From Fidelibacterota bacterium (GTDB lineage Bacteria; Fidelibacterota; Marinisomatia; SCGC-AAA003-L08; JACNLC01), in contig JABHXA010000001.1 in NCBI GenBank assembly GCA_018657495.1, positions 122,016-186,015 of the forward strand: a stretch of DNA of 64,000 nucleotides, given 5' to 3'. This document shows, in pieces, positions 4,527 to 62,973 of this stretch. Both the position numbers and the translations under genes were made by a program. Within the stretch, counting starts at the first letter, position 1. Each line of letters begins with the position of its first letter. A model generated the notes under the pieces. It did not search any database, had not been told where the DNA came from, and saw only the letters and a program-made list of their open reading frames with translations.

Positions 4527-5969
4527 TTAGTGTTTACTGTCATTATAAATGGACATTAACTTGGTTTTCAACACTTTTCCAGTATCAGTTCTGGGAATAG
4601 AATTAACATAAAAAACCTCTTTTGGGATTTTGTAATCAGCCAGCTTTCCTTTACAATAATTTTTTATTTCTATACCTTGATCACCTGGTTTTATTAAACC
4701 TCTACTTTCATCATAATTTTTTAATACTATAAATGCCACAATCTTCATTCCCCATTCATTATCAGGAAGTTTTGCAACTTCACAGTCATTAACATCAGGG
4801 ATCTGCATGAGGATATTTTTAACCTCTTCTGGACTCACATTTTCACCACCGCTAATAATAATATTATCTTTTCTCCCTGAAATGTATGTTTTATTATCAT
4901 CACTGATCCTAGCCAAATCACCAGTGTAATGTATACCCCTGCAATCAGTTTCACCGATGTATCCCTTCATAACCATAGGTCCTGATACAACTATCTCTGA
5001 ATCATCAACTTGCAACTTAACATCATTGAATGGAAAACCAATATAATTACCATCTTCCTCGGCTGTAACCGCTGAAAGATGCCAGCCGCAGATTCCTGAA
5101 CATGTTTCAGTCATTCCATAACTGACCATTATTGGCAAATTGGATTCCCGGCAGATCTTTAATAACTTATCGGAAATCGGACCCCCTCCAATAACTATTA
5201 AGCGAAGACTTGAAAATAATGAAGTGATATTATTAGACTGCAGTAACCGAGACATCATGGTGGGGACCAATGAAATTAATGATATGTCCTGATGATATAT
5301 TAATTGATTTACTTTGTTGATGTTGAAATCGATTGCAATGGAAATATTAAAGCCATACAGTAGTGCTCTAATAATAATATTTAATCCTCCCACATGGGAA
5401 ACGGGAAGACATAACAGATAATTATCATGTTCTGTGAATTGAACTTCTTGATGCCAGCTCCTGGCGCTGGAAATAAAATTTACTGCTGTTAATTGAACTG
5501 CTTTCGGAAGTCCAGTACTGCCAGACGTAAATAGTATTACGCAGACGTCTTCAGGATCCGGCAGAACATTCGGTAAATCCTGGATGAAATATGTATCAGA
5601 TAAATCAAAATCATCAACTGACAATTGATTAATTTTATTTTTCTTAAATACTTTTAAGTGAGATTGATCTGTTACCAAGATCGCTGGTTTGACAGTTTCA
5701 AAGCAGGAGATAATCTCATCGTTGGTAAATTTCCTATGCAAAGGAATTACGACTGCACCCAAATTCTGGCCAGCAAGGAAAAATCGAATAAATGCGATTG
5801 GGTCATCAATGCTCAGCATTATTCGCGATTGTCGGGAGACCCCTTTTTTATGAAGCTGAGAAGCAATTTTGAGAGATTCCATCATCAGGGTTTTCATTGT
5901 CCATAAAGTCCCGTTGTAATATACTCTGGCCTTTTCGTTTTGCAATTGAATGTTATATAATGACTGCAA
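4527..5969 (-). CDS. menE: o-succinylbenzoate--CoA ligase (AMP-binding enzyme)
   Basis: Adenylate-forming motifs LFTSGSTGLPKAV, YGMTE, GDLA and SGRKDNIIISGGENV. It is the last gene of a co-directional menB-menA-menC-menE run. Confidence 0.85.
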   Translation of the reverse strand: MQSLYNIQLQNEKARVYYNGTLWTMKTLMMESLKIASQLHKKGVSRQSRIMLSIDDPIAFIRFFLAGQNLGAVVIPLHRKFTNDEIISCFETVKPAILVTDQSHLKVFKKNKINQLSVDDFDLSDTYFIQDLPNVLPDPEDVCVILFTSGSTGLPKAVQLTAVNFISSARSWHQEVQFTEHDNYLLCLPVSHVGGLNIIIRALLYGFNISIAIDFNINKVNQLIYHQDISLISLVPTMMSRLLQSNNITSLFSSLRLIVIGGGPISDKLLKICRESNLPIMVSYGMTETCSGICGWHLSAVTAEEDGNYIGFPFNDVKLQVDDSEIVVSGPMVMKGYIGETDCRGIHYTGDLARISDDNKTYISGRKDNIIISGGENVSPEEVKNILMQIPDVNDCEVAKLPDNEWGMKIVAFIVLKNYDESRGLIKPGDQGIEIKNYCKGKLADYKIPKEVFYVNSIPRTDTGKVLKTKLMSIYNDSKH

Positions 5970-5997
5970 ATCTAAAATCTAATCAATGGGGAAATTG

Positions 5998-7029
5998 TTA
6001 TGCTTCACGGTATTCAATCCCAAGGCCAGGGATCTCTCCAATATACATTCTTCCATTTTCTTGAAAGGGAATATTTTGCTGATCATCATCAAATAATGAA
6101 CCCGTCATGAATCCACATGCTTCAGTAATTTGATACGCACAAGATAAATGAAGCAATGCCATCCTGCCAATATATGATTCCATCATAGAGGTTATCACAC
6201 TTCTAATACCATGGTCCGCAGCGAGTTCTATTATCTCCTTTGTATTTTTAAACCCCCCAGAAACCATCGGTTTTATTACGAATACATCGGTTGCGCCTGC
6301 ATCGATTAAGTTTTGGGCCGATATAATATCTGTCAGGGATTCATCGGCGGCGATAGGAATAGTAGTATTTTTGCGTAATTCTGAAATTTGATGGATTTTA
6401 TCCCTGGATAGAGGTTGTTCAAGGTAATCAATATTGTACGAAGATAATAAATCGCACGCCTCTAAAGCTGTGTTCAAATTCCAAGCACCATTGACATCTA
6501 ATCGAAGCTTGACGGTTGGTCTCAGGCTCATTGTAATATTTTTGACAAAATCGATATCTTCTAATAAAGTATTGCTGCCAATTTTCAACTTTACAACTTC
6601 AACTCCACTTTGCAACTCAAAACCTTTATGATAAAGCATGTTTACTTTCACAAATGAACAGGTGCTTTTATTGATGTAAAAAGCCATAACAGTCTTATTC
6701 ATTTTTGATAATATATCAAGAATAGCCGTCTCCATGGCGAAACAGGCTGAGGGGATTTCTTTTAATAAATCCCGGATAATATCAAGCAGTTTTGCATCAA
6801 CATCAATCCCTTTGATGGTTTTTGCAACGGATATGAGGGCAGATAAACATTCCTTTTCGGACTCGGTGCTGAAACCAGTTAGCGGTGCTGCTTCGCCAAA
6901 ACCATTTATACCATTGGCAGATAGTTTGACGATGAAACCAGATCGATATTTATAGATCCGTTGTGATGTTTGAAGCGGAGTTTTAAAAAATATTTTATAT
7001 GGGATAACCTTGATGTCATTCAATTTCAT
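5998..7029 (-). CDS. menC: o-succinylbenzoate synthase (enolase superfamily, MLE subgroup)
   Basis: 343 aa with enolase-superfamily metal and base motifs (VKLKIG, LRLDVNGAW, YLEQP, AADES). It overlaps menA by 4 nt and sits in men-cluster context. Confidence 0.8.
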   Translation of the reverse strand: MKLNDIKVIPYKIFFKTPLQTSQRIYKYRSGFIVKLSANGINGFGEAAPLTGFSTESEKECLSALISVAKTIKGIDVDAKLLDIIRDLLKEIPSACFAMETAILDILSKMNKTVMAFYINKSTCSFVKVNMLYHKGFELQSGVEVVKLKIGSNTLLEDIDFVKNITMSLRPTVKLRLDVNGAWNLNTALEACDLLSSYNIDYLEQPLSRDKIHQISELRKNTTIPIAADESLTDIISAQNLIDAGATDVFVIKPMVSGGFKNTKEIIELAADHGIRSVITSMMESYIGRMALLHLSCAYQITEACGFMTGSLFDDDQQNIPFQENGRMYIGEIPGLGIEYREA

Positions 7030-7898
7030 AGTATTAAACCAAGAACAAATAGTATGCTGTAGACCATCATCACTCTTGCAGTGCCCCCCAGAATGGGATA
7101 TAATTCCCTCCCTTCAAGGGTCCATACCGATATAGTCATTTTTACAGCCACGGGTATTGAGAAGAGATACAGGTACATGGATAAATCGTTTTTCCAGGTG
7201 ACTGCCAATACTGCCGGGATGAAATATGAAATCACCATCATAAGGCTATATTCTAAACGACCGAATAGTTTTCCCCATCTGACAACAAGAGTTCTTTTCC
7301 CCGTTTTCGTATCTGTTTCCACGTCGCGAAGATTATTAACCACAAGGATTGCAGTTGAAAATGTTCCCATGGAAAAACCAACAAGCAATGATTCGATTGA
7401 GATCATTCCGGTTTGCAGATAGTAAGTACCAGGTACAGCGATAAGTCCAAAAAATACAATTACAAATATATCACCCCAACCATGATAACCAAGGGGATAA
7501 GGTCCACCTGTATAGGCAATCCCAGCTGCAATGGATGCCAAACCAATCCACACGATGGGCCAACCACCGATATATACTAGATAAGTACCGGCAGCAAGAG
7601 CCAAACTGAAAGTGATAATCATGCCATTTTTCACCTGGGTAGTGGATAACAATCCCGACTGAGTGACCCTGGCCGGACCGATCCGTTCAGAGGTATCGGT
7701 TCCGTTGAGAAAATCAAAAAGATCATTGGCAAGATTTGTACCAATTTGAATTAACATGGCAGCAATCAATGTAATCAAACCAGTGTTCCAATGAGATATG
7801 CCGTCATGGAATGCTAATGCCACACCAAGCATCACCGGCGCAATTGCTGCAGGTAATGTTTTTGGTCGAGATGCCAGTATCCAGTATTTAATTTTCAT
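7026..7898 (-). CDS. menA: 1,4-dihydroxy-2-naphthoate polyprenyltransferase (UbiA family)
   Basis: 290-aa polytopic membrane protein with the UbiA Asp-rich motifs NLANDLFDFLNGTD and NNLRDVETD. Men-cluster context. Confidence 0.85.
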   Translation of the reverse strand: MKIKYWILASRPKTLPAAIAPVMLGVALAFHDGISHWNTGLITLIAAMLIQIGTNLANDLFDFLNGTDTSERIGPARVTQSGLLSTTQVKNGMIITFSLALAAGTYLVYIGGWPIVWIGLASIAAGIAYTGGPYPLGYHGWGDIFVIVFFGLIAVPGTYYLQTGMISIESLLVGFSMGTFSTAILVVNNLRDVETDTKTGKRTLVVRWGKLFGRLEYSLMMVISYFIPAVLAVTWKNDLSMYLYLFSIPVAVKMTISVWTLEGRELYPILGGTARVMMVYSILFVLGLIL

Positions 7899-7968
7899 AA
7901 ACAGTAGATGAATAGAAATACAAATATTTCAACAGGTGAGAATACAGGGAAAAAGGAGTAAATATCAA

Positions 7969-8799
7969 TTAGGGCAGACGGTCAAATTTTGAGAAATCCG
8001 GATTTCTTTTTTCTTTAAAAGCGTTCCTTCCCTCCTTGGCTTCCTCGGTCATATAAAACAATAATGTTGCATCTCCAGCCAGCTGTTGCAATCCTGCCTG
8101 ACCGTCGCAGTCTGCATTCAATGCTGCTTTTAATAAACGAATAGACATGGGAGATTTTGCTAGAATTTCACGACACCAGTCGACCGTTTCTTCTTCTAAC
8201 TTTTTGAGAGGAACCACGGAATTTACCAAACCCCAATTTAAGGCGGTGGGGGCATCTATAAAGCGACACATAAACCATAATTCCCGAGCCCGTTTTTGTC
8301 CGATGATCCTTGCCATATATGACGCACCCCAGCCTCCGTCAAATGACCCAACCTTGGGACCAGTCTGTCCAAATTGAGCATTGTCTGCTGCAATCGTCAG
8401 ATCGCACATCATATGGAGAACATGTCCTCCACCCACAGCATATCCGGCAACCATAGCAATGACCGGTTTGGGAATATACCGTATCTGCTTTTGTACATCA
8501 AGAATATTGAGTCGGGGTACGCCGTCATCGCCGATATAACCTTGATCCCCTCGGATTTTCTGATCGCCGCCTGAACAAAAAGCATCCGGTCCTTCACCGG
8601 TGAGGATAATCACACCAACCGAAGCATCCTCTCGTGCCAATTCAAAGGCATCTTTGAGATCGTGGACAGTTTGGGGACGAAAGGCATTTCTCACTTCAGG
8701 ACGATTGATGGTTATTTTGGCGATACCGCTAGCGTCTTTAGTGCCTCGATCATATTTTATATCTTTGTAATCTTTTATGGATTCCCAGTTGTAATTCAT
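7969..8799 (-). CDS. menB: 1,4-dihydroxy-2-naphthoyl-CoA synthase (crotonase fold)
   Basis: 276 aa. Typical MenB strings are [49 protein letters not shown] and the C-terminal KRNPDFSKF. Confidence 0.92.
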
Positions 8800-16543: not shown

Positions 16544-17965
16544 ATGAAACAACTTCGGATACCTTCATCACTCCGTCGATTTACATCTGGATCAGCTGTG
16601 CTCACTGTGAAAGGCTACACCATAAAAGAAATTCTGAAAGAGCTGTTCACTCAATTTCCTGAAATACAATTTCAGTTAACTACAGAAGCAGGGAGTTTGC
16701 TAAGCATATTCAACCTGTATTTAGATGGTATAAACATCAAACAGCTGGACGGAATGGAAACAAAACCGGGAGATAATTCAGAAATCATAATAATTCCAAC
16801 TTTTGCATCAGGTACCGAAGACGAGCTCCCACCATTGGTCTCAGATGAGGTTGTCAGATACAGTAGACATTTGCACCTTCCCGAAATTGGAGCACATGGT
16901 CAGAGTAAATTAAAAAATTCCAGCGTACTAATTGTCGGCACCGGCGGACTCGGCAGTCCAGTATCATTATATCTCGCTGCTGCTGGTGTGGGGACCATCG
17001 GTCTGGTTGATTTTGACATTGTGGATGCATCCAATCTTCAGCGACAGATAATATTTAATGTGGATGATACTGGGGAATCAAAGGTTGAGGCAGCGTCAGA
17101 AAAATTAAAAAAATTGAATCCATTTATCAATATTCAGAAGCACAATGTCCAGCTAAACTCTGAAAATGCTATAGAGATTATTCAAAACTATGATCTTGTG
17201 GTTGACGGCTCAGACAATTTCCCAACCCGCTATCTTGTAAATGATGCCTGTGTAATATTGAATAAACCAAATGTATATGGGAGCATTTACCGTTTTGATG
17301 GTCAGGTATCCGTGTTTAATTTTAAAGATGGACCCTGTTATCGCTGTCTATATCCTGAGCCACCTCCACTGCATTTGGTGCCTTCTTGTGCCGAGGGAGG
17401 GGTACTGGGTGTGCTCCCGGGGATTATCGGTACTTTACAGGCCAACGAGGTCATAAAAATTCTTTTAAATATTGGTGATACATTGTCTTCACGCCTATTA
17501 TTATTTGATGCTCTGGCAATGGAATTCTCTGAAATGAAATTGAAGAAAAACGAAAATTGCCCTGTATGCGGTAAACACCCCACAGTCAAAAAACTGATTA
17601 ATTATGTGGAATTCTGCGGGGTTCCTGACTTGCCCTCAAGGGAATCGCATCAGGATATTTCGGTTGAAGAATTACATAATAAATTAAATAATGGTGATAA
17701 TATTACTATTGTAGATGTTCGCGAGACCTTTGAATTGCAGATATCCAGACTTGAAAATGCTGTACATATCCCGGTAAATGAGATTCCTTCACGTCTGAAT
17801 GAATTAGAATCTGCCGATGAACTTGTTATTCTCTGTCGAACCGGGATCAGATCGGCGCAAATCTGTCAATTTTTAGTTAATCAGAATTTCAAAAATGTAA
17901 AAAATGTTATTGGCGGAATCAATGACTGGGGACGAAAAATAGATCCCTCACAGAAATTATATTGA
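16544..17965 (+). CDS. fusion protein: CysO/MoaD-like ubiquitin-fold domain + ThiF/MoeB (MoeZ-type) adenylyltransferase + rhodanese domain
   Basis: 473 aa in three parts:
- Residues 1-~90 (MKQLRIPSSLRRFTSGSAVLTVKGYTIKE...NLYLDGINIKQLDGMETKPGDNSEIIIIPTFASG) follow the CysO/MoaD beta-grasp pattern.
- The E1 core has RYSRHLHLPEIG, the GTGGLGS nucleotide loop and the zinc pairs CYRC/CPVC.
- The C-terminal rhodanese domain has the active-site loop CRTGIRS. Confidence 0.8.
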   Translation: MKQLRIPSSLRRFTSGSAVLTVKGYTIKEILKELFTQFPEIQFQLTTEAGSLLSIFNLYLDGINIKQLDGMETKPGDNSEIIIIPTFASGTEDELPPLVSDEVVRYSRHLHLPEIGAHGQSKLKNSSVLIVGTGGLGSPVSLYLAAAGVGTIGLVDFDIVDASNLQRQIIFNVDDTGESKVEAASEKLKKLNPFINIQKHNVQLNSENAIEIIQNYDLVVDGSDNFPTRYLVNDACVILNKPNVYGSIYRFDGQVSVFNFKDGPCYRCLYPEPPPLHLVPSCAEGGVLGVLPGIIGTLQANEVIKILLNIGDTLSSRLLLFDALAMEFSEMKLKKNENCPVCGKHPTVKKLINYVEFCGVPDLPSRESHQDISVEELHNKLNNGDNITIVDVRETFELQISRLENAVHIPVNEIPSRLNELESADELVILCRTGIRSAQICQFLVNQNFKNVKNVIGGINDWGRKIDPSQKLY

Positions 17966-22956: not shown

Positions 22957-22959
22957 ATT

Positions 22960-23325: not shown

Positions 23326-23378
23326 TGGATTTTCACTTTATTCTGACTGTTCTTATTTTATATATACTAGGCTGTTTA

Positions 23379-24161: not shown

Positions 24162-24182
24162 TTGATAATTGTTATTTCCAGA

Positions 24183-25385: not shown

Positions 25386-26068
25386 CAGACATCATCCGCT
25401 GAAATCGAATCATCTGGTAATTCTTCCTTTGTTGCTTCGAAAATATTCTTATATGGGCCAGTATTTTTAACCGTTTGAAAAAATTCATCTATTTTATTAT
25501 GATCTTTTAATCCAGGTGATAATTCAACACCACTGTTTACATCCAGAGCATGCGGATTGATGGTCTTTATGGCATCTTTGACAATTTTGTGATTTAACCC
25601 GCCACTTAAGATGATTGGTTTATTCCATTTATGATTATTGATAAGGGACCAGTCAAAGGATTTTCCAGTTCCGCCATAACTTTTTTCTGACCATGTATCC
25701 AGCAGGAGAGCGCAGACATTATTGGGGAATTCCATAGTTACGGATACCCCTTTTTTTAATCTCAATGCTCGTATGACAGGTTTTGAGAGAGACTGACAAA
25801 ATTCATCAGATTCGTCTCCATGGAGCTGAATTAAATCAAGACTTGCTGTTTTTATAATAGATTCAATGTGGGGCATAGATTCATTGACAAATATACCTAC
25901 TTTTTTAATTTTTCTATCCGTTCCCTCAGAAATAATCCCAGCACTTTTTGGTGAAATAAATCGTGGACTTCCAGGATAAAATATATAACCCATCGCAGAC
26001 GCCCCGACTCTTACAGCATATCTGGCATCACTCAAATTGGTTATGCCACAAATCTTTACCGGAATCAT
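25385..26068 (-). CDS. trpF: phosphoribosylanthranilate isomerase
   Basis: 227 aa with KICGIT, QLHG and LDVNSGVE. The TGA stop overlaps the trpB ATG by 1 nt. There is a short acidic C-terminal extension. Confidence 0.9.
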
Positions 26069-26845
26069 TTATTGTCCATCCAGTAACTGCGGGATGGCCA
26101 ACCCCGGATTGTCTTTATTCATAAGGGAAGTCCCAACTAGAATGGCATCATATCCAATTGTATCCACAAATCTAACATGCTCGTTGGAATGAATTCCACT
26201 TTCAGCAATTTTGATGGATGTTTCTGGAAGATGATGATAAGATGTTTCAAACCACTTCAAATCGATCTCCATAGTTTCGAGGTTTCTTGAGTTTACGCCA
26301 CAAATTTCCGGTTTCAATTTTTTGACTTTTTTTATCGCAGACATGGAGTGCGCCTCAACAAGAACTTTCAGTCCAATTTCCATTGCCTTTTCATATAATG
26401 ATTCTAATACAGAATATTCGAGGATATCGGCAATTAAAAGTAATGCATCAGCGCCATGCAAATATGATTCGTATACCTGGTACTCACTGATAATAAAGTC
26501 TTTACGGAGAATCGGAATTTTTACCGAAGATTTAATTTTTGATAGCAATTCAATTGATCCGCCAAAAAAGGGATTATCAGTAAGAACGGAAATTGCCGCC
26601 GCACCATTATTTTCATAGGATTCAGCAATTTCAACTGGATCATTTGTCTTATTAATGATACCCTCAGAAGGAGATTTCTGTTTTATTTCGGCGATGACCG
26701 ATATGACATCTGAAGTCAAAGCCTTGAGCATGTTTGCCCGTTTAAAATTTTTATGTTTTGCTCGTAAAACTTCTATGGGGGTTTTATTTTCTAAAACTTG
26801 TAGTTCCTGTTTTTTTGACTCAATAATTTTATTGAGTGTATTCAT
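26069..26845 (-). CDS. trpC: indole-3-glycerol-phosphate synthase
   Basis: 258 aa with VIAEIKQKSPS, LRKDFI, EAHS and GVNSRNL. It abuts trpF. Confidence 0.93.
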   Translation of the reverse strand: MNTLNKIIESKKQELQVLENKTPIEVLRAKHKNFKRANMLKALTSDVISVIAEIKQKSPSEGIINKTNDPVEIAESYENNGAAAISVLTDNPFFGGSIELLSKIKSSVKIPILRKDFIISEYQVYESYLHGADALLLIADILEYSVLESLYEKAMEIGLKVLVEAHSMSAIKKVKKLKPEICGVNSRNLETMEIDLKWFETSYHHLPETSIKIAESGIHSNEHVRFVDTIGYDAILVGTSLMNKDNPGLAIPQLLDGQ

Positions 26846-27840
26846 CTTTTAGAAATTAACTTTTGCATGACATCATATGCTGATCCAGAATCAATGGATT
26901 GCCTTGCCAGTTCAATTCCTTTTGATAAATATTCAACTTTTCCTCCAACAACGATACCTGCGGCAGCATTCAGCAAAACAATATCGCGTCTTGGCCCTGT
27001 TTCGCCACGGAAAATATCAATGATAATCTTGGCATTTTCTTCAGGTTCTCCGCCGGCCAAATCACCCAGCTTTGCAACGGCAATTCCATAATCTGCTGGA
27101 GAAAATACTGTGGATTTAATCGATCCATTTTCCAATTTGGTTACTTTAGTGGAAGATGTATTGGTAATTTCATCCATGCCGTCATGTCCATGCACAACCA
27201 TGGCAGACACAGCATTTAACCGTTTTAAAACTTTTGCAAGTGTTACAGTAAGCACACCATCATAAACTCCCAATACTTGTCGTCTGACACCTGCTGGATT
27301 TGCTAAAGGTCCGAGAATATTAAATACGGTCCTAACCCCAAGAGAAGTGCGCGCCTTGACTGCATATTTCATCGCTGGATGAAGATATGGTGCAAACATA
27401 AAACCGATACCAATTTCATCCACACACTCAGCAACTTTCTCAGGACTCATCGTGATATCAACACCCAATGCTGTCAGTACATCTGCAGACCCGGATTTGG
27501 ATGTCATGGATCGATTACCATGTTTGGCAACTTTTACTCCGGCACCGGCAACTACAAAAGAAGCTGCTGTGGAAATATTAAAAGTACCTCTGGCATCTCC
27601 TCCAGTACCACACATGTCTATGGCATCTGATTGGATGGGAACAGATGTCATTTTTTCTCTCATCGCCTGTGTAAATCCAGCTATCTCCGATGATGATTCT
27701 CCCTTAGAGCGCAATGCAATAAGAAATCCGGCAATCTGAACGTCATTAAATTCACCGGACATGATTTTAAACATAATTTCGCGGGATTCATCCTGATTTA
27801 AGCTTTGATTACCTAATAATTTGTCAATTGTTGTTTTCAT
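26842..27840 (-). CDS. trpD: anthranilate phosphoribosyltransferase
   Basis: 332 aa with DMCGTGGD, FNISTA and KHGNRS. It overlaps trpC by 4 nt. Confidence 0.95.
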   Translation of the reverse strand: MKTTIDKLLGNQSLNQDESREIMFKIMSGEFNDVQIAGFLIALRSKGESSSEIAGFTQAMREKMTSVPIQSDAIDMCGTGGDARGTFNISTAASFVVAGAGVKVAKHGNRSMTSKSGSADVLTALGVDITMSPEKVAECVDEIGIGFMFAPYLHPAMKYAVKARTSLGVRTVFNILGPLANPAGVRRQVLGVYDGVLTVTLAKVLKRLNAVSAMVVHGHDGMDEITNTSSTKVTKLENGSIKSTVFSPADYGIAVAKLGDLAGGEPEENAKIIIDIFRGETGPRRDIVLLNAAAGIVVGGKVEYLSKGIELARQSIDSGSAYDVMQKLISKR

Positions 27841-27883
27841 TTTATATTTCTCAATTTTTTTTCGGGCTTCGAAAAGTGGATAT

Positions 27884-28444
27884 TCAATTTAAAAAGTTTG
27901 AGACCATTTTTTTTCCATAGTCTGTCATAATAGATTCAGGGTGAAACTGAACACCGAATACCGGATATTTTTTATGTTCGATGCCCATGATAATACCATT
28001 ATCTGTCTCAGCAGTTATTCTTAAATCACTTGGAAATGAGCTTCTTTCTGCAATCAATGAATGATATCGAGTGGCGATGAAGGTCTCTGGAATATTATTA
28101 AATATTTTTGATTCCAAATGATTAATACTAGAGGTTTTTCCATGCACAATTTCATCGGCACAGATGATCTTGCCTCCAAATGCTTCCGTTATGGACTGGT
28201 GGCCAAGGCAAATTCCAAAAATCGGAATACTTTTATAAAATCGACGAATCAGGCTGATGGATATTCCCGCCTGCTGCGGAATACCTGGTCCGGGAGATAT
28301 AACTATTCGCTCAGGCTGCATTTTTTCAATATCCTGAATAGTTATTTTATCATTTCGAACTACGGTCAATTCAGAATTTATAACTCCAATGTACTGGACC
28401 AAATTATAAGTGAATGAATCGTAATTATCTATAATCAATATCAT
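27884..28444 (-). CDS. trpG: anthranilate synthase component II (glutamine amidotransferase)
   Basis: 186 aa with IDNYDSFTYNL, GICLGHQ (catalytic Cys) and GVQFHPES. Confidence 0.95.
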   Translation of the reverse strand: MILIIDNYDSFTYNLVQYIGVINSELTVVRNDKITIQDIEKMQPERIVISPGPGIPQQAGISISLIRRFYKSIPIFGICLGHQSITEAFGGKIICADEIVHGKTSSINHLESKIFNNIPETFIATRYHSLIAERSSFPSDLRITAETDNGIIMGIEHKKYPVFGVQFHPESIMTDYGKKMVSNFLN

Positions 28445-28451
28445 GTCTTTC

Positions 28452-29921
28452 TCACGTTACCAAACCATTTTCAGCAAAATCTATTGCTGCATTTATGGCT
28501 TTTGCTTTGTTGATACATTCATTGTATTCTTTCTCAGGGTCAGAATCGTGCACAATCCCTGCCCCGGCTTGAAAATAAGCAATGCCATCCTTAACCACCA
28601 TAGTTCTGATGGCAATACAGGTATTCATATTACCACAGAAATCGACAAAACCAACAGCTCCGCCATATATATTCCTCTTGGCTTTTTCTAAATTATGAAT
28701 AATTTCCATTGCCCTGATTTTTGGTGCACCCGTCAAAGTTCCTGCCGGAAAGCCACTTAATAATGCATCAATTAAATCTACATCCTGTCTTTTCTTTCCG
28801 TGGATTTCAGAAATTATATGCATAACATGAGAATATTTTTCTACCTGCATGAATTCATGAACTTTTACGGTTCCAAATTTGGAAACTTTCCCCACATCGT
28901 TTCTGCCCAAGTCAACAAGCATCAGGTGCTCGGCGCATTCCTTTTTATCTGCAAGCAGCTCATTTTCTAATAAATGGTCCTCCTGTTCGCTGTTTCCCCG
29001 GTGACGCGTGCCTGCAATAGGCCGTAAAATTATTGTGTTATCTTCTACTTTTACAAGCAATTCAGGTGAGGCGCCAATTATTGCCCAATCATCAATTTTA
29101 ATATAAAATAAATATGGCGACGGATTAATAGATCTCAAGGCTCGATAGATATCCACAGGTTTGGCATTTGTTTTCCTTTGGAATCTCTGGCTCAGTACCA
29201 CCTGAAAAATATCACCGGATTTTATATGGTCTTTGGCCTGTTTAACAACGTCAGTAAATTCTTCAAGTGTCGTTTCAAATTTAATTTTACTTCTCTTTAG
29301 TTTGACTGGACTCTGATAATCAATATCTGTATGGAGGTCATCTCCCAGTTCATCAATTCTCTGATTTGCTTTTGCATAGGCTTTCGGCAAATCATCTGTT
29401 TCAGTGTTGACATTACTAAATACAATAATTCTATTTTTTAAATGATCAAAAACGATGATATCCTCATAAACCATGAATACGGAATCCGGCACACCCAGTT
29501 CATCGGTATCGTAAATTGGAATATCCTCATTTAAACGGATGCATTCATATCCCAAATACCCCACAACCCCACCGGTAAACCCGGGAAATCCACTGATCTG
29601 ACAGCTGCTGTATGAGCTTACCAGGGTCCTAAGGTTATCTAAATATGAATTTGGACTTTCATAATTGAGATTATTTTCTGTGATTGTGGTTTTATTGTCG
29701 GCAAAATTGATTATCTTCTGGGGATTTCTTCCAATATAGGAATATCTTGAAAACCGAGTTCCTTTTTCAACTGATTCAAATAGAAAAGAATATTTTGAGT
29801 TTTGGGACAATCTCAAATAGGCCGAAATCGGCGTCAGTAAATCTGCAAGAATCTGCTTATATACCGGAACCATTTTATGCTTTCCGGCAAGTAATAAAAA
29901 TTCAGAATAAGTCATATCCAT
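28452..29921 (-). CDS. trpE: anthranilate synthase component I
   Basis: 489 aa with an N-terminal Trp-feedback region (LFESVE), GAPK.RAMEII, and the GGAVGY-type motif reading GGAVGF here. Confidence 0.95.
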   Translation of the reverse strand: MDMTYSEFLLLAGKHKMVPVYKQILADLLTPISAYLRLSQNSKYSFLFESVEKGTRFSRYSYIGRNPQKIINFADNKTTITENNLNYESPNSYLDNLRTLVSSYSSCQISGFPGFTGGVVGYLGYECIRLNEDIPIYDTDELGVPDSVFMVYEDIIVFDHLKNRIIVFSNVNTETDDLPKAYAKANQRIDELGDDLHTDIDYQSPVKLKRSKIKFETTLEEFTDVVKQAKDHIKSGDIFQVVLSQRFQRKTNAKPVDIYRALRSINPSPYLFYIKIDDWAIIGASPELLVKVEDNTIILRPIAGTRHRGNSEQEDHLLENELLADKKECAEHLMLVDLGRNDVGKVSKFGTVKVHEFMQVEKYSHVMHIISEIHGKKRQDVDLIDALLSGFPAGTLTGAPKIRAMEIIHNLEKAKRNIYGGAVGFVDFCGNMNTCIAIRTMVVKDGIAYFQAGAGIVHDSDPEKEYNECINKAKAINAAIDFAENGLVT

Positions 29922-52599: not shown

Positions 52600-54411
52600 A
52601 TGCAATTTTTATTAAAAAAACAAATATTTTTATATACCCTACTGATTACCCTATTATTTTCCCGAGTTTTTGCCGTTGGTGAGGCTGGTGCTGTTTTTCT
52701 TTTAATCTCCCCTTCTCCCATGTTGAATGGTATGGGAGGTGTTGGCGCCGGGTACCCTGTTAATGATATTTTTTCAAGTTATTATAACCCTGCCAATTCT
52801 TTTGCCCCTATAGGTTTAACCTATTATGCCACAAAGAACTCAACTTTATGGTTACCTAATATTTCTGATAATATATATTTGAAGAATAAAATTATTAAGG
52901 TTTCCTATCGTTTAAAAAAATCTCCCTTTTACTACACACTGACGCAATTTAAAACTTTTATGGATCTAGGGAATCAGGCTCTTACTAATGAAAATGGTGA
53001 AATAGTGGGCCTGTCTGACGCAAGTATGAAGTCCACGAGTATCAGTTACGCATTTGGAATGAACTTCCGTAATTTTCCATTGAGAGTTTCGATAGGTCGG
53101 ACAGATAAAAAAGTCAAACAGCACTTGTTCAATTCTTCAAATCAAATGGTAATAATAGGTAATTCAAATGATAAGCTATATGATATTGGAATACTGGTTT
53201 CCTTTCCATATTCGACAACCAAAAAACGTAAGGGAATTTCAACCCAAATAACACCGGCAATCGGTTTCAGTCAATCAAATCGAGGTGGAAATATTCATTT
53301 TGGTGACTCTCAGGATCCGGCACCACGATTTGCCCGATTAGGTATTTCTCTCTCAGTGAATATGGTTCTTGATAATAAGTTAAAGATTCTTAATTATGCT
53401 ATTGCCAGAGAAGCAGGTGATATGCTGGCAGAACGATATTGGGAGTCAGATTCTGTATCCGTAATCCGGTATCAATCCGGCACAGGGGATATTAATTTTA
53501 AAAATCATCTGATCGATTCCAAAACCAGTCATCATGTTTCAATATCTCAGGGTCAGGAATTAGGCTTTATGAATACAATCTTTTTTCGAAAGGGTAAATT
53601 CACTGATATTGATGGTTCTATATATTCACGATATTCAGGATGGGGGTTCAATCTAAAAGGATTTCTGCACCTGGCGTCTCATTTAACCAATCATAAAAAA
53701 TACTCACAATTGAGCAAGTTTATTAATGTTCGCTACAATCAGGTTGTTGAATCGTCTAATGAACCAGAATCACCCAGAGATGGAATTACGTATCAAAATT
53801 TTACTTTCACATTGAAAAATCCAGGAAGATTTTTAGAATTTATTAATCAAAAACAAATTAGCTTTTTTGCAGGACAAATACGTTCAACAATTATTAATAA
53901 TGATGTCTCATCCAGACTAAATAATTCTGGAATTGAGTACGGCATTGAATTACCAAAGTTTATGAATAGAGCCGGGGTAATTACCGGAATTAGATTTGCT
54001 CAAATGGGGTTTAAACTGAATTCTCCTGACGACGTGTATATCTCCGGAGATCTAAAAGTAACGTTGAATTACCTTAGGGTTTATGTTTATAAATCCTATG
54101 AATTCGCCGGTTTTGATTTCCAAACAGGTCCAGATTTTGGATATTTAATCAATGTAAATTTAACATCTAAAAATTGCTTTGGAGAAAATTGTTATTCTTC
54201 TTCATATACAATCTCAGGTGATAAATGGACAGATGAGAATACTGGAAACCGGTATGATATTGGATGGAGTGCCGGTATTCGTCTTTTTCCAAAATCAGAA
54301 TATTCCATGGGTTTAGACTACTATTATGGGTTCAGTAACGTCATTAATACTGCAAGGAGTTTAAACACTAGTTTTAACATAAGATTTTACTGGAACATCA
54401 ACAGAAAATAA
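52600..54411 (+). CDS. outer-membrane beta-barrel protein with PorV-like N-terminal motif
   Basis: 603 aa with a signal peptide. The segment GAVFLLISPSPMLNGMGGVGAGYP...YYNPAN resembles the FLLISPDAR..GMG..G.A...NP motif I recall at the N-terminus of PorV/LptO-type barrels. The rest shows alternating beta-strand patterning. Confidence 0.45.
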   Translation: MQFLLKKQIFLYTLLITLLFSRVFAVGEAGAVFLLISPSPMLNGMGGVGAGYPVNDIFSSYYNPANSFAPIGLTYYATKNSTLWLPNISDNIYLKNKIIKVSYRLKKSPFYYTLTQFKTFMDLGNQALTNENGEIVGLSDASMKSTSISYAFGMNFRNFPLRVSIGRTDKKVKQHLFNSSNQMVIIGNSNDKLYDIGILVSFPYSTTKKRKGISTQITPAIGFSQSNRGGNIHFGDSQDPAPRFARLGISLSVNMVLDNKLKILNYAIAREAGDMLAERYWESDSVSVIRYQSGTGDINFKNHLIDSKTSHHVSISQGQELGFMNTIFFRKGKFTDIDGSIYSRYSGWGFNLKGFLHLASHLTNHKKYSQLSKFINVRYNQVVESSNEPESPRDGITYQNFTFTLKNPGRFLEFINQKQISFFAGQIRSTIINNDVSSRLNNSGIEYGIELPKFMNRAGVITGIRFAQMGFKLNSPDDVYISGDLKVTLNYLRVYVYKSYEFAGFDFQTGPDFGYLINVNLTSKNCFGENCYSSSYTISGDKWTDENTGNRYDIGWSAGIRLFPKSEYSMGLDYYYGFSNVINTARSLNTSFNIRFYWNINRK

Positions 54412-54425: not shown

Positions 54426-54881
54426 TTACAATTCTCCCAGTATATCAATTGCATGAGTTTTTACTTTCACTTTTCCATAAACTTTTTCGATGAGTCCGTT
54501 TTCATCAATAAGATACGTAACCCGATTTATACCCATGTACTCACGACCCATGAATTTTTTTAGACCCCAAATCCCATAAGCTTCCAGCATTTCATGACTT
54601 TCATCACAAAGCATAGGAAATTGAAATTGATATTTTTCAACAAATTTTTTCTGTTTTTTGGGTGGATCTGCAGAGACACCAATGATGGTAGTATTCTTAT
54701 CTCCATAATTCTTGGATTCATCACGGAACCCTTTTCCTTCAGTTATTCAACCAGGTGTATTTGCTTTTGGGAAAAACCATAAAACTAATTTTCTACCTGA
54801 ATAATCTTTGAGAGAAACATCATTCTCATTTGCATCTGGCAAAGTGAAGTCTGGTGCTTTATCTCCGACATTTAATAGCAT
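54426..54881 (-). CDS. Bcp/PrxQ-type peroxiredoxin with an in-frame TGA at the peroxidatic position: candidate selenoprotein (alternative: pseudogene)
   Basis: The ORF track lists only the C-terminal 62 aa (54426..54614). The same frame continues up to ATG 54881..54879. It reads MLLNVGDKAPDFTLPDANENDVSLKDYSGRKLVLWFFPKANTPG[TGA]ITEGKGFRDESKNYGDKNTTIIGVSADPPKKQKKFVEKYQFQFPMLCDES.... The TGA (54747..54749) replaces the Cys of the conserved F.PK..TPGCT.E motif. Confidence 0.6.
54714..54731 (-). promoter_or_regulatory. hairpin downstream of the in-frame UGA (candidate bacterial SECIS element)
   Basis: The minus strand reads GGGUUC-CGUGAU-GAAUCC. The stem is 6 bp including one G.U pair, and the 6-nt loop contains GU. 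It begins 15 nt after the UGA. The stem is short and I could not extend it convincingly. Confidence 0.35.
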
Positions 54882-55030
54882 GAATTCTCCTTAATTTCTT
54901 TGTAATTCTAAAATTTCTGATATTTATTCAGGCATATAATAAAGAGAACATATAAACATTATGAAAAAAAATGTACTCATTGAACAATTGCTATTCTATC
55001 TAAATTAGCTATCAGTTTACCGGTATAAAA

Positions 55031-55276
55031 ATGATAACTATATATTCTTCAAATTGGTGTGCATCATGCGTTTGGGCAAAAAGGCTTCTAGACGATCTGG
55101 GCCTTACTTATCTTGAAATAAATATTCAGAAAAAAAATATGACTCGAAATGATCTGGAATCCATCACTGGCGGAAGAACGGTACCCCAGATCATTATCAA
55201 TGATGTTTGTATTGGCGGATTCGATAAATTATATAGTTTAAATAGATCCGGTGAATTAGAAAAATTACTGAATTAA
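55031..55276 (+). CDS. glutaredoxin (CxxC = CASC)
   Basis: 81 aa with IYSSNWCASCVWAKRLL, TVPQIIIND and IGGFDKLYSL. Divergent from the peroxiredoxin gene across 150 bp. Confidence 0.88.
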   Translation: MITIYSSNWCASCVWAKRLLDDLGLTYLEINIQKKNMTRNDLESITGGRTVPQIIINDVCIGGFDKLYSLNRSGELEKLLN

Positions 55277-55288: not shown

Positions 55289-55876
55289 ATGTTTTCACAA
55301 GATATCTTAAAATCAATTATTCAATTAAAACCGGTTATTCACACACCGGATATTTATATTAGAATGGTGGAGAAAACGGATAATGAAGCAATATTTGAAT
55401 ATGCCTCAGATCCAATTGTCAGTAAATACCATAGTTGGGATCCACATCAATCCCTTCAGGATACACATGGATTTCTCTCTCGATATATAGAGTTCCTAAA
55501 TAAATTTCAGAAACTGGAATTTGGAATTATCCTAAAAGAAAATGATACCTTAATCGGAATGTGCGGATTCCATGATTTCAGTTTTACCCATAGCCGATGT
55601 GAAATCAGATATGTTTTATCTGCAAAATACAGGGAAAAGGATTTATTGACTGAATCTGTTGAAGCCCTTATTGAGTTTGGGTTTACCCGAATGGAACTGA
55701 ATAGAATAGAGGCAAGAACCCGAATCGAGGATATAGCCTCTCAGAGGGTACTCAAGAATGTAGGTATGAATGAGGAAGGTCTGTTGAGAGAGCAAATGTT
55801 TATTAAAGGACAGTTTACAGATTTCAAATTATATTCAAAATTGAAACGGGAGCATCATCGACCAAAATATAACTAG
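55289..55876 (+). CDS. GNAT N-acetyltransferase (RimJ/RimL-like)
   Basis: 195 aa. The pattern LIGMCGFHDF......EIRYVL....REKDLLTESVEALIEFGF......NRIEARTRIEDIASQRVLKNVGMNEEG is typical of the RimJ/L subfamily. Confidence 0.8.
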   Translation: MFSQDILKSIIQLKPVIHTPDIYIRMVEKTDNEAIFEYASDPIVSKYHSWDPHQSLQDTHGFLSRYIEFLNKFQKLEFGIILKENDTLIGMCGFHDFSFTHSRCEIRYVLSAKYREKDLLTESVEALIEFGFTRMELNRIEARTRIEDIASQRVLKNVGMNEEGLLREQMFIKGQFTDFKLYSKLKREHHRPKYN

Positions 55877-55991: not shown

Positions 55992-57080
55992 ATGACGAAG
56001 TCGGCACAAAAATTTGTTGGAAAGGCTACATTTGCAGCTTTATCTGCGAATGAGGTTCTTACTGATATTTTCCCTGACACTCCAAAAGCCGGTCTTGAAC
56101 ATATTGAACTTTCACATACCATGGATGGAATAATAATTCTACCTGCTACTGCCAATATCCTGGGAAAGGCTGCCAATGGAGTTGCTGATGATCTGGTTTC
56201 TACACTCTTATCTGTATGTGAACAGCCCACCTTATTTGTGCCTGCAATGAATAGCCGGATGTGGGAGAACCCGGCAACAATGGACGCCATATCTAAATTA
56301 AAAAACAGGGAAAAGGCAATTCTCAACCCTGACTCAGGTTATCTTGCCAGTCTTCACGAAGGGACAGGTAGGTTACCCGGAAATACGGAAATCATGAATG
56401 CAATACGCGAATTGTTTTCACCACCGCTACCTTTAAAAAACATTCATGTTCTTGTAACAGCAGGCCCAACTCATGAGTCTATTGACCCTGTGAGATATTT
56501 AACAAATCGATCCAGTGGAAAAATGGGCTTTGCCCTGGCAGAAGTTGCAAGAGACCTGGGTGCAGATGTAACATTAATAACTGGACCGGTTTTTCTTCCA
56601 GATCCTGCCGAAATTCATATTATCAATGTAACAACTGTTCACCAAATGTTAGAATCTATTCAAAAGTGCATTTCCAAATCGAAATGGGATTATATCATCA
56701 TGGCAGCTGCTCCTGCAGACTATTACCTGGAAGGTCCCTCAGAATCAAAAATAAAACGGAAATCTGAAAAATTATCTTTATCTCTTTCAACTGCTCCTGA
56801 TATATTGAAATCTATAAAGGATTCAACGGACAGCGTCATCGTAGCATTTGCCCTTGAAACAGAAAATGGCAAAGAAGAGGCATTAAGGAAAATGAAGGAT
56901 AAAGGGGCTGATTATATCATATTAAATTATGCAAATGAAGAGGGTGCAGGGTTCGAATCCTCAACAAATCGAGTGACAATATTTTCTAAAAACGGTGATG
57001 AGATCAATCTTAAAAAAGATCGGAAAGACAGGATTGCCCGGAAGATTTTTAAATCTATTTTAAAAAAACAATTACCCTAA
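55992..57080 (+). CDS. coaBC: bifunctional phosphopantothenoylcysteine decarboxylase / phosphopantothenate--cysteine ligase (coordinates from first ATG; the real start is probably upstream)
   Basis: The CoaC motifs are PATANILGKAANGVADDL and PAMN..MW. The CoaB motifs are VTAGPT.E.IDPVR.L.N.SSGKMG and AAAPADY. The conserved N-terminal strand KNILICITGSIAAYK is encoded in-frame upstream (about 55890..55937) of the first ATG. Confidence 0.85.
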   Translation: MTKSAQKFVGKATFAALSANEVLTDIFPDTPKAGLEHIELSHTMDGIIILPATANILGKAANGVADDLVSTLLSVCEQPTLFVPAMNSRMWENPATMDAISKLKNREKAILNPDSGYLASLHEGTGRLPGNTEIMNAIRELFSPPLPLKNIHVLVTAGPTHESIDPVRYLTNRSSGKMGFALAEVARDLGADVTLITGPVFLPDPAEIHIINVTTVHQMLESIQKCISKSKWDYIIMAAAPADYYLEGPSESKIKRKSEKLSLSLSTAPDILKSIKDSTDSVIVAFALETENGKEEALRKMKDKGADYIILNYANEEGAGFESSTNRVTIFSKNGDEINLKKDRKDRIARKIFKSILKKQLP

Positions 57081-60429: not shown

Positions 60430-61674
60430 CTAATAACGTAGTTGTGCCAGCTCCATAACCTGCATCATATCCAGGCCGATTCTTGCAGGATCCTCATATC
60501 CGATAATTCTGTCATTTAAACCCGTTCCCTGCGAAAGGTCTATAGGTCTGGACATTAGTTTTTTTCTTGAAATATTTTCATACACTATTCTTATTATGGG
60601 CCGGAGATGATTGGATTCGATCACAACTGCGGTTCTGTTGCTTTCCAGCTTTACCAGGGTTCCAACCGGATATATGCCTATAAAATTGATAAATTTATTT
60701 ACTAGGTCTTCTTTGAAATGGTTTGCCCGGGATTTAAATATTTCATTTATTGCAACAACAGGAGGTATTCCAGACACAAATATTCTATCGGAACTCATAG
60801 CATCAAACACATCCACAATAGCTGCCATTTGTCCAGCAAGACTGATCTGATCACCACTTAATCCGTTGGGGTATCCAGATCCATCCAACCTTTCATGGTG
60901 TTCGGCAGTAACTTTTAAAACTATATCAGAAACGGACCGGTCTTTGTTAAGAATTTCTAATCCCTCAACCACATGATTTTGTATTAATGCAAATTCATCA
61001 TCAGATAATTTCCCAGGTTTATTTAGGATATTTAACGGGATTTTCATTTTTCCGATATCATGCATTAATCCTGCCATACCGTATTGATTTAATAAATCAC
61101 CTTTGATACCTACTGTTTTTGCGAATGTTATAAGCATTGTACTCACACTTAGTGAATGCATAAAGGTGTAGTCATCGCCCTCTTTCACCCTGAGCAATGA
61201 AATAAGCGCATCCTTGTTACGGCTGATTGATTCAACCATGACGTCAACAATCGGATGTAATGCTTGAAGATTTGTTTCTTTCCCTAGTATTACATTATCA
61301 TAGGCCTCAACTAAAACGTCTTTTGTCTCAGACAGTATTTCTTTTGCATTGTCAATTTCTTCCTGATAAGTAATCGTCTTGGGTATTTCTTCTTCCTTAA
61401 TTGATTCTCGCTGAATCGTTTTTAAAACCTCAGATTTTGTTTCTTTTATAACAATTCTCTCTGGGGGAGGTGGTGCTGGGGTTTTTTTGACATCCAATCC
61501 TCTGGATGTATCAATATACAGATCTTCGATGCCAATTTTTTTTACTTTCTCTAATGCGGCATCGGTATTAATCGTCAATCGGCGTTTAATAAAGGGATGA
61601 TCCATCCATCCACAATTAAAGTCGTGGACAAACATTCCAATTCTCAATTCTTTAATTTTAATCTTTTTAATCAT
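60430..61674 (-). CDS. HD-GYP domain protein with DUF3391-like N-terminus (c-di-GMP phosphodiesterase candidate), copy 1
   Basis: 414 aa with the N-terminus MIKKIKIKELRIGMFVHDFNCGWMDHPF, plus HDIGK and HHERLDGSGYP. Confidence 0.85.
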   Translation of the reverse strand: MIKKIKIKELRIGMFVHDFNCGWMDHPFIKRRLTINTDAALEKVKKIGIEDLYIDTSRGLDVKKTPAPPPPERIVIKETKSEVLKTIQRESIKEEEIPKTITYQEEIDNAKEILSETKDVLVEAYDNVILGKETNLQALHPIVDVMVESISRNKDALISLLRVKEGDDYTFMHSLSVSTMLITFAKTVGIKGDLLNQYGMAGLMHDIGKMKIPLNILNKPGKLSDDEFALIQNHVVEGLEILNKDRSVSDIVLKVTAEHHERLDGSGYPNGLSGDQISLAGQMAAIVDVFDAMSSDRIFVSGIPPVVAINEIFKSRANHFKEDLVNKFINFIGIYPVGTLVKLESNRTAVVIESNHLRPIIRIVYENISRKKLMSRPIDLSQGTGLNDRIIGYEDPARIGLDMMQVMELAQLRY

Positions 61675-61755: not shown

Positions 61756-62973
61756 CTAGTGGATTCCCAAAACTTTACCTACATCAATTCCCCAATTTCG
61801 AGGATCTTCAACTCCAACAATACGATTATTCAGACCCATGCCCTGTGATAAATCAAGCTTTCTTGGTGTTATGGCCCTTTTTCTTCTATAATTATATACA
61901 AGCATTATAATCGGGGTTACCTGGTTAGATTCAATGACGACGCCGAGAAGACTCCCTTCTAATTTTACCAAGCTACCTACTGGGTAGATACCCATAAACT
62001 TTATAAACTGATCCACCAAACCTTCGTTGAAGAAATTGTTTTTTCTCCATTCATATATCTTCCGAATCGATGCTGCTGGTGATAATCCTTTATGATAAAC
62101 ACGATCTGAGCTGATAGCATCGAACACATCGACGATAGCTGTCATTTTACCACCTTGACTGATTTCTGTGGCATGTTTTTTATCTGGATATCCTCTGCCA
62201 TCTTCTCTTTCATGATGTTCCCCGGCTATTTGAATAACTAATTCCGGTATATCTCCAATTTCTGACAATATCATCCTGCTTTGCACAACGTGATTTTTCA
62301 TCTTTTTAAATTCTTCATCATTGAGACTTGCCGGTTTATTTAGAATTTTTAACGGAACAGTCATTTTACCAATATCATGCATTAGACCGCCAACGCCATA
62401 GAGGCTTAGTTCCTCACCTGTAATTCCAATAGATTTGGCAAAAGCAATAAGCAAGGCACCCACACTCACAGAATGCATGAAAGTATATTCATCTTTATGT
62501 TTCACACGAAATAACGATAACAAGGCACTTTCATTCCTGGATAAGGATTCCACCATATCATTTACCAGGGGATAGACCTCATCCATTCGGACATCCTTTC
62601 CCTTCATAACCTCTTTATAAACCTTTGTCAGTTGCTCCTTTGCATTGTCTTTCACCTTCATGGCATTTTCAACTTCTTCTTCATATTCAACTAATTTATG
62701 AGTTGTTCCTATCGGTGTATCAGAAACTCCTTTTTCAAGATCATTGGTGATTTGCTTTTCAACTTCACTGGCTGTATAAGCATCACCAATATCCAGCCCT
62801 TTTACAGTATCAATATATAAGTCACGAATTTTTAAACTGTTTACCTTCTTGACCATTTCATCAGTGGTTATTGCAATCTGTTTTTGAATAAAGGGATGTT
62901 CCATCCACCCACAATTAAAATCGTGGACATACATACCTTTACGAAGCTGTTTTATTTTTATTTTTTTAATCAT
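61756..62973 (-). CDS. HD-GYP domain protein with DUF3391-like N-terminus, copy 2 (tandem paralogue)
   Basis: 405 aa with the N-terminus MIKKIKIKQLRKGMYVHDFNCGWMEHPF, plus HDIGK and HHEREDGRGYP. It is colinear with copy 1 over the whole length. Confidence 0.85.
   Translation of the reverse strand: MIKKIKIKQLRKGMYVHDFNCGWMEHPFIQKQIAITTDEMVKKVNSLKIRDLYIDTVKGLDIGDAYTASEVEKQITNDLEKGVSDTPIGTTHKLVEYEEEVENAMKVKDNAKEQLTKVYKEVMKGKDVRMDEVYPLVNDMVESLSRNESALLSLFRVKHKDEYTFMHSVSVGALLIAFAKSIGITGEELSLYGVGGLMHDIGKMTVPLKILNKPASLNDEEFKKMKNHVVQSRMILSEIGDIPELVIQIAGEHHEREDGRGYPDKKHATEISQGGKMTAIVDVFDAISSDRVYHKGLSPAASIRKIYEWRKNNFFNEGLVDQFIKFMGIYPVGSLVKLEGSLLGVVIESNQVTPIIMLVYNYRRKRAITPRKLDLSQGMGLNNRIVGVEDPRNWGIDVGKVLGIH

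Follow-up and report, generated by a model that had tools for sequence, protein, structure and literature searches.

A probable selenocysteine-encoding peroxiredoxin gene divergently paired with a glutaredoxin gene in Fidelibacterota (Marinimicrobia)

In the 64,000-nucleotide stretch of Fidelibacterota DNA analyzed here (contig JABHXA010000001.1 of assembly GCA_018657495.1, positions 122,016 to 186,015; hereafter the window), a gene for a peroxiredoxin (Prx) of the Bcp/PrxQ type, prx, lies next to a divergently transcribed glutaredoxin (Grx) gene, grx, and is interrupted by a TGA codon at the position of its catalytic cysteine (Table 1). The prx reading frame extends from an ATG at 54881..54879 to a TAA at 54428..54426, with the TGA at 54749..54747 as its sole in-frame interruption, and in the list of open reading frames (ORFs) of the window the gene appears solely as pieces of 44 and 62 amino acids. 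The AAGGAG sequence located 5 nt before the ATG supports that codon as the true start. For protein searches, Cys was substituted at the TGA codon. The product matched the Pfam family AhpC-TSA (PF00578) at 1.2e-38, its residues 5-133 corresponding to profile positions 1-123/124, and scored 168.2 bits, above the cut-off of 140, against NF006960, the NCBIfam model for the thioredoxin-dependent thiol peroxidase Bcp (COG1225). The solved BCP-type chain 5enu_A aligned to residues 3-149 (5e-31), and the TGA fell opposite the Cys of its TPGC sequence. The PxxxTxxC motif is present as P38-K-A-N-T42-P-G-U45, where U stands for the proposed selenocysteine (Sec), and the catalytic residues would be Pro38, Thr42, Sec45 and Arg120, the last located in the sequence GINRVTYLID that aligned to GIERSTFLID of 5enu. 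An earlier interpretation made from the letters of the DNA, the sequence-only reading, had described a complete 151-residue Bcp/PrxQ frame with a single TGA exactly at the peroxidatic Cys codon (FFPKANTPG-TGA-ITEG); its coordinates are correct, and the profile matches and the alignment with 5enu_A bear out both statements.

The 2 kb around prx, TGA included, are 100% identical in the metagenome-assembled genome (MAG) GCA_018651535.1 (JABIDX010000003.1) as well as in two metagenome assemblies from JGI. Because the same TGA-bearing DNA occurs in three independent assemblies, a sequencing error is ruled out. An exact-protein look-up with the neighboring Grx located the same locus in a Saanich Inlet sample as well, and assembly GCA_018645785.1 carries it too.

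One possible explanation for a stop codon at this position is that prx is a pseudogene, in which a TGT or TGC codon for the catalytic Cys was changed to TGA by a nonsense mutation and the gene is now dead or dying. A single base change would suffice, and gene callers do cut prx into its two pieces. We compared prx with 160 related loci, which came from a scan of species-representative genomes and a second scan of metagenome contigs. The codon in the peroxidatic column was TGA in 94 loci and TGT/TGC in 66, with no instance of TAA/TAG. All of the labeled genome-derived TGA loci belong to MAGs or single-cell amplified genomes (SAGs) of Candidatus Neomarinimicrobiota, Marinimicrobia or Fidelibacterota, and their proteins share 55-69% identity with the window protein. 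One of the TGA loci, L023, lies on the complete Fidelibacterota chromosome OZ252221.1. TGA-bearing relatives were also found at 73%, 93% and 99-100% identity. The nearest Cys forms, which come from MAGs labeled as Myxococcota, are only 57-59% identical; since close relatives carry TGA, a recent nonsense mutation is refuted. The comparison of orthologues at this column, suggested in the sequence-only reading, thus found TGA in 94 loci and no near-identical relative with TGT/TGC.

The reading frame beyond the TGA bears on the same question. The genes that could be fully reconstructed (that of the window and those of 24 genome loci) are single ORFs in 25 of 25 cases, with lengths of 150-157 codons, and the stretch after the TGA measures 105-110 codons across all TGA loci. 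There are no extra stops or frameshifts, and coding periodicity continues downstream of the TGA: the entropies at the three codon positions are 0.83/0.56/1.42 bits downstream and 0.73/0.51/1.39 bits upstream, and amino-acid identity among the TGA forms is 0.585 downstream and 0.613 upstream. The equal excess at the third position and the similar identity on both sides indicate that the 3' part evolves as translated sequence. Ninety-four loci, with proteins as far apart as about 55% amino-acid identity, all have the TGA, and the DNA of the window locus was recovered from three independent assemblies. This is hard to reconcile with a decaying gene, and the divergence of the related loci also excludes a single contaminating sequence. 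We regard the probability that prx is a pseudogene as negligible.

In a neighbor-joining tree, the clade spanning 89 TGA tips holds only one Cys sequence, that of locus L149. This sequence, with TGT at the peroxidatic position, is 85% identical to the TGA form at L160 and retains five of the six stem pairs of the hairpin described below, which suggests that it reverted recently from Sec to Cys and still carries a relic of the insertion signal. The tree fits one old Cys-to-Sec change followed by rare reversion. Two residues of the active-site motif, Thr at -3 and Gly at -1 relative to Sec, are invariant in the Sec forms (95/95).

A second alternative is that a standard amino acid is inserted at the UGA, either through reassignment to Trp or Gly as in genetic codes 4 and 25, or through site-specific read-through or suppression. 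It could be argued that the 151-residue products called on short contigs have a Trp at position 45, and that the machinery for Sec was not seen in the DNA examined. The Trp calls probably arise because metagenome gene callers turn to code 4 when contigs are short. TGA is an ordinary terminator here, as it ends 15 of the 54 long ORFs of the window and serves as the terminal stop in 15 of the 89 complete TGA-prx genes. A scan of the window for ORF pairs joined by one TGA returned 36 mechanical candidates, among which prx was the only credible one; the scan is blind to short N- or C-terminal cases. The use of TGA as an ordinary stop, together with the lack of any other credible in-frame TGA, excludes genome-wide reassignment of UGA, in agreement with the earlier statement that the window follows the standard code. 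Site-specific insertion of a standard residue is countered by the active site itself, in that the homologues all have an indispensable Cys at this position, where by established chemistry Trp or Gly would abolish catalysis, and by a conserved, TGA-linked hairpin at the spacing of a SECIS (Sec insertion sequence) element. Decoding as a standard amino acid is therefore very improbable, if slightly less so than the pseudogene.

The hairpin begins 15 nt after the UGA and consists of the 5' arm GGGUUC (54731..54726), the loop CGUGAU (54725..54720) and the 3' arm GAAUCC (54719..54714), covering the codons for G-F-R-D-E-S. The bacterial SECIS (bSECIS) model (Zhang & Gladyshev 2005 bSECISearch, summarized in PMC13188914) specifies a loop of 3-9 nt, a stem of 4-16 bp, a G in the first two loop positions, a UGA-to-loop distance of 16-37 nt and a minimum free energy (MFE) of -7.5 kcal/mol or lower. 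With its 6-nt loop, 6-bp stem, G at loop position 2 and UGA-to-loop distance of 21 nt, the hairpin agrees with the geometry of the model, and the earlier claim that its spacing lies in the bacterial range was well founded. The energy is another matter. The 45 nt from the UGA fold at -6.4 kcal/mol (z = -0.68), short of the -7.5 threshold, and equally good folds were obtained for 47 of 200 shuffled sequences. A 66-nt segment reaches -8.3 kcal/mol only by way of an unrelated second hairpin. A search of the whole window against Rfam at the gathering threshold gave no match, nor did a SECIS family or any other credible RNA family appear at E <= 10 in 54600..54900. We judged single-sequence folding to be insufficient as evidence for a SECIS, and because the window hairpin is unremarkable by itself, its significance depends on the comparison with relatives, many of which reach -8 to -12 kcal/mol with the help of one additional G-C pair or of a lower stem.

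That comparison showed a strong association of the hairpin with the TGA codon. Of the 89 distinct TGA sequences, 84 form the complete stem of six pairs and the other five form five pairs, as compared with none of 64 distinct Cys homologues for the complete stem, most of them forming just two or three pairs. At the hairpin, 90.9% of cells are paired (91 sequences); sliding the 3' arm gives 8-63%. Pair 27/40 occurs as A-U in 63 sequences, G-C in 19, G-U in 7 and U-A in 1, and pair 25/42 as G-C in 75, G-U in 13 and A-U in 2; double changes were observed at four pairs, and the observed covariation score was reached by none of 500 shuffles. What the TGA forms conserve in the loop is the G at position 2, with U or G after it. 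The hairpin and its position had been identified correctly in the sequence-only reading, and the compensatory changes it had proposed to look for are present, but the GU of the loop that it had pointed out is not conserved as such, since a second G may follow the first.

Because the hairpin lies within the coding sequence, one could envision that prx encodes a true selenoprotein but that the hairpin is a by-product of the peptide G-F-R-D-E-F, the real signal being located elsewhere or being of a different kind. The stem has just 6 bp and a poor folding score, it is built from a conserved amino-acid motif, and locus L001 has LSFKQEF and another fold. If the peptide were the cause, then synonymous sites should be free to vary, and they are not. 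In the 25 reconstructed genes, Phe at +7 is always TTC (25/25) and Glu at +10 always GAA (25/25), Arg at +8 is only CGT or CGG, and Gly at +6 only GGA or GGG, although TTC makes up 26% of the Phe codons of the window and CGT plus CGG 25% of its Arg codons. In contrast, the Gly codons just outside the hairpin, at -1 and +4, vary freely among three codons. The third-position entropy is 0.98 in the hairpin zone versus about 1.4 elsewhere. Pairing also outlasts changes in the residues themselves: a Phe-to-Leu replacement goes together with a change from GGA to GGG in the Gly codon, and both arms are altered yet still paired at L145 (T-F-R-D-E-I, with Gly-Phe...Phe replaced by Thr-Phe...Ile) and at L160 (V-F-R-D-E-Y, with Gly to Val and Phe to Tyr). 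Finally, Cys homologues that have the F-R-D core form no full hairpin (0/64). For these reasons we consider it unlikely that the hairpin is a mere by-product of the peptide, although this alternative is less remote than the two discussed above.

The exceptional locus, L001:3127-3198, deserves separate description. The residues after Sec differ (AAEGLSFKQEF), five of the six standard pairs form, and the fold favored by RNAfold is another hairpin, beginning 4 nt downstream of the UGA. This may be a remodeled SECIS.

The sequence following the proposed Sec in the window protein is U-I-T-E-G-K, which has no Cys at +5, and the protein thus lacks the CxxxxC arrangement of an atypical 2-Cys Prx. A resolving Cys of the alpha3 type is missing as well, a Leu standing opposite the Cys of EALCALF in 5enu. 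The sole Cys of the protein is C92 in LLCDE, where the LLSD motif has its Ser. The absence of the +5 Cys, pointed out earlier for this one gene, proved to be a trait of the whole clade: a Cys occupies the position in 8 of 95 TGA forms versus 60 of 66 Cys forms, and the other Cys positions of the TGA clade (+24, +36 and +47) are each occupied in only one third to half of the members. Judging from its sequence, the window Prx behaves as a 1-Cys (1-Sec) type enzyme. Since the +5 resolving Cys was lost and no other Cys is universally conserved, the oxidized Prx is most likely recycled by an external thiol.

A candidate for this thiol is encoded next to prx. As the sequence-only reading had stated, the glutaredoxin gene is divergently paired with prx. 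The two lie 149 nt apart, and the assignment of grx is supported by the Pfam match (2.5e-16). A divergent Grx gene lies less than 300 nt upstream in 58 of the 76 TGA-prx loci with enough flanking sequence, compared with 0 of 65 Cys-prx loci. A search beside the TGA-prx loci lacking a Grx gene for SelW-like or other CxxU/UxxC ORFs gave nothing convincing. In 20-21 loci (L006, L017, L020, L026, L082, L083, L090, L094-L096, L100-L102, L105, L109-L111, L113, L114, L119 and L141) TGA takes the place of the first Cys codon in the CxxC motif of the Grx relative itself (UxxC), whereas the Grx of the window is the Cys form. Downstream of the TGA, these UxxC genes have a hairpin with a stem around GCAGC...GCUGC and a mean MFE of -7.2 kcal/mol, as compared with -2.7 kcal/mol in Cys-type grx. 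The Prx thus remains a Sec protein across the clade, and it is the Grx that switches between Cys and Sec. A TGA at the catalytic Cys of Grx, a protein unrelated to Prx, is an independent indication that the lineage decodes UGA as Sec, and the conserved pairing together with the UxxC forms points to a functional link between Prx and Grx.

The spacer between the two genes is unusually long in the window, as its counterpart in the relatives usually measures 61-87 nt. It presumably contains the promoters of both genes; no regulator site was identified within it. Most spacers of the relatives share a central A/T-rich motif around TAATTTA, which may be a shared divergent promoter or operator.

At this locus, the TGA occupies the Cys column between intact, translated flanks, it is linked to a conserved hairpin, and grx is kept in synteny. 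On this comparative evidence, we conclude that prx is very probably a genuine Sec-encoding peroxiredoxin gene. If this is true, then the UGA at codon 45 would be decoded by Sec-tRNA(Sec) brought by SelB, and SelB would be recruited, as we presume, by the 6-bp/6-nt hairpin inside the coding sequence, which would act as a bacterial-type SECIS. The catalytic steps of a Prx at its peroxidatic residue are established peroxiredoxin chemistry. In the site formed by Pro38, Thr42 and Arg120, the selenolate of Sec45 would reduce the peroxide and be converted to a selenenic acid, which an external thiol, with the adjoining Grx as the prime candidate, would then attack. The resulting Prx-Grx intermediate would be a mixed Se-S species, or Se-Se in relatives having a UxxC Grx. 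The second Cys of Grx would resolve the mixed bond, and Grx would be re-reduced by glutathione or by a reductase.

Several observations weigh against this proposal. In addition to the low folding stability of the window hairpin and the lack of an Rfam match, selA, selB, selC and selD were absent from the 64-kb window, from flanking DNA of the related loci amounting to about 0.7 Mb and from 10-kb extensions of the window, which together are a small sample of a genome of roughly 2 Mb. ARAGORN detected no tRNA at all, hence no tRNA-Sec, in the window and all related loci. In tblastn searches of the window and the 160 loci with approximate E. coli SelA, SelB and SelD queries, there was no credible match, the lone weak one (22% identity, E = 0.01) lying in a locus outside Marinimicrobia. 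Pfam labels for AIRS, SelA or the SelB wing were lacking in the 10-kb extensions, taken at both window ends from longer public contigs. Single-cell genomes of SAR406 are reported to contain SelD (PMC5029168), and three SAR406 SAGs are classed by Peng et al. 2016 as 'orphan SelD', with neither SelA/SelB nor other selenium-trait genes and with no selenoproteins. One could envision two scenarios for this discrepancy. The likeliest is that the 'orphan SelD' genomes are incomplete and that their TGA genes were missed. Another, much less likely, is that SelA and SelB are truly absent and Sec is inserted by some other route. Full-text literature searches combining Marinimicrobia or SAR406 with selenoprotein or selenocysteine retrieved no paper assigning selenoproteins to the phylum. 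A further point concerns the reductant, in that the role of Grx in recycling the oxidized Sec-Prx is proposed on one basis, synteny.

The window protein may be compared with several known systems. PrxU of Eubacterium acidaminophilum, a Sec-Prx that Sohling and co-workers reportedly verified by experiment in 2001, likewise carries Sec at the peroxidatic position. It belongs to another Prx subfamily and is longer (a 233-position model), and the window Prx scored 36.4 bits against the PrxU model NF040737, below its cut-off of 270, and hence is not an orthologue. With the Cys-type BCP/PrxQ proteins (the E. coli Bcp family NF006960 and the structures 5enu, 5iox, 3gkk and 3ixr) the window Prx has in common the fold family, the length, the PxxxTxxC motif and the Arg residue; unlike them, it has Sec in place of the peroxidatic Cys and neither a +5 nor an alpha3-type resolving Cys. 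The hairpin is comparable to the E. coli fdhF SECIS in being a stem-loop within the coding sequence soon after the UGA, without any resemblance in sequence.

The closest counterpart is the marine Sec-Prx family 'Prx' (COG1225/pfam00578, TxxU), which was established from the Sargasso Sea (Zhang, Fomenko & Gladyshev 2005; PMC1088965) and from data of the Global Ocean Sampling (GOS) (Zhang & Gladyshev 2008; PMC2398784), with 253 sequences in GOS. The sequence-only reading had mentioned such reports, and the idea of the family has indeed been in print since 2005. Like its members, the window Prx is of the Bcp type, marine, with Sec at the peroxidatic position and a SECIS-like hairpin directly downstream. 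On these shared features, the window prx almost certainly belongs to this family. The two papers dealt with unassigned reads, whereas the clade described here is tied to Marinimicrobia/Fidelibacterota genomes; the GOS paper reported Prx/SelW neighbors (PMC2398784), in contrast to the Prx/Grx neighbors found here. The comparatively defined SECIS, the quantified loss of the +5 Cys and the divergent Grx partner are likewise beyond the 2005 and 2008 studies. A Sec-Grx family (UxxC) is listed for marine metagenomes and Clostridia in PMC1088965 and PMC13188914; it is matched by the roughly 20 UxxC relatives of the neighboring Grx, and the window Grx itself has Cys (CASC).

Table 1. Features of the prx-grx locus, in window coordinates
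Feature	Position	Strand	Basis
Bcp/PrxQ-type peroxiredoxin coding sequence, 151 residues, Sec predicted at residue 45	54426..54881	(-)	Translation, profiles, structure alignment
UGA codon probably read as selenocysteine, peroxidatic position (TPG-U)	54747..54749	(-)	TGA versus TGT/TGC comparison across related loci
SECIS-like hairpin	54714..54731	(-)	Pairing, covariation, frozen synonymous sites
Shine-Dalgarno-like AAGGAG	54887..54892	(-)	Read from sequence; 5 nt upstream of ATG 54881
Divergent intergenic region between prx and grx, 149 nt	54882..55030	.	Sequence; comparison of spacers
Glutaredoxin, 81 residues, CASC active site, TVPQI motif	55031..55276	(+)	Pfam Glutaredoxin 2.5e-16

Other parts of the window were also inspected. 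Convergent with prx is an ORF of 603 residues (52600..54411, plus strand) that has no Pfam family on record; the N-terminus of its product resembles a signal peptide, the abundance of Tyr, Asn and Gly is reminiscent of an outer-membrane beta-barrel, and the ORF is syntenic in L002 at 39% identity. On the other side of grx, CoaBC (Flavoprotein plus DFP domains) is encoded at 55992..57080 on the plus strand, where the longest ATG-started ORF has 362 residues. Its start is uncertain, as one NCBI record has a product of 408 residues that starts farther upstream and overlaps the end of the preceding GNAT acetyltransferase gene (55289..55876, plus strand). Two tandem paralogues of 414 and 405 residues at 60430..61674 and 61756..62973 (minus strand) combine DUF3391 with HD_5/HD domains and resemble HD-GYP phosphohydrolases. 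A menaquinone cluster at 4527..8799 (minus strand) comprises menE, menC, a UbiA-family prenyltransferase gene and an enoyl-CoA hydratase-family gene, and trpE (28452..29921) lies in the region from about 20000 to 29921 (minus strand) that the earlier annotation labeled a tryptophan cluster. A gene at 16544..17965 (plus strand) encodes a fusion protein of 473 residues, in which a ThiS/MoaD/SAMP-like domain of the ubiquitin fold (residues ~18-89) and a MoeB/ThiF-type adenylyltransferase are joined to a rhodanese domain at the C-terminus. MoeB being a known marine selenoprotein family, this gene was considered as a further selenoprotein and rejected, as it is a Cys form (LCRTG) with a normal stop. 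In one Saanich Inlet assembly (L168:4560-5861), the DNA about 5 kb past the right end of the window differs from that of the other assemblies and carries a phage-integrase gene, which points to an integrated element whose presence varies in the population.

Public annotation mishandles prx. JGI and ENA gene calls divide the gene into the 44-aa and 62-aa pieces, and the 44-residue fragment is recorded on 134 contigs of up to 328 kb under the name 'peroxiredoxin Q/BCP'. On short contigs, 151-residue products with Trp at position 45 are found, apparently because metagenome gene callers apply code 4 to short TGA-bearing contigs; thousands of public protein entries for the TGA-Prx clade are full-length with Trp at the catalytic position. 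The prediction that automated annotation would miss the gene was therefore right as far as the fragment and the Trp-45 products are concerned, but did not hold throughout, because one NCBI MAG record already contains a 151-residue product.

What is new here is incremental, the family itself being already known: the host phylum, the SECIS derived by comparison, the lost resolving Cys and the pairing with Grx. General understanding of selenoproteins is left unchanged. A marine Sec-Prx family without taxonomic assignment is now tied to Marinimicrobia, and the 'orphan SelD' label of SAR406 is suggested to reflect incomplete genomes. More tentatively, and with some doubt on our part, the TxxU Prx reads of 2005 and 2008 might be largely those of Marinimicrobia (SAR406), and a Prx without a resolving Cys might form, with a Grx that switches between Sec and Cys, a dedicated two-gene selenium peroxidase system operating through an Se-S/Se-Se relay. 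The Sec-Prx and Grx offer a testable redox pair. As long as prx is annotated as a fragment or as a Trp-45 protein, metabolic reconstructions will misreport an antioxidant enzyme and hide what would be a requirement for selenium in a very abundant ocean phylum.

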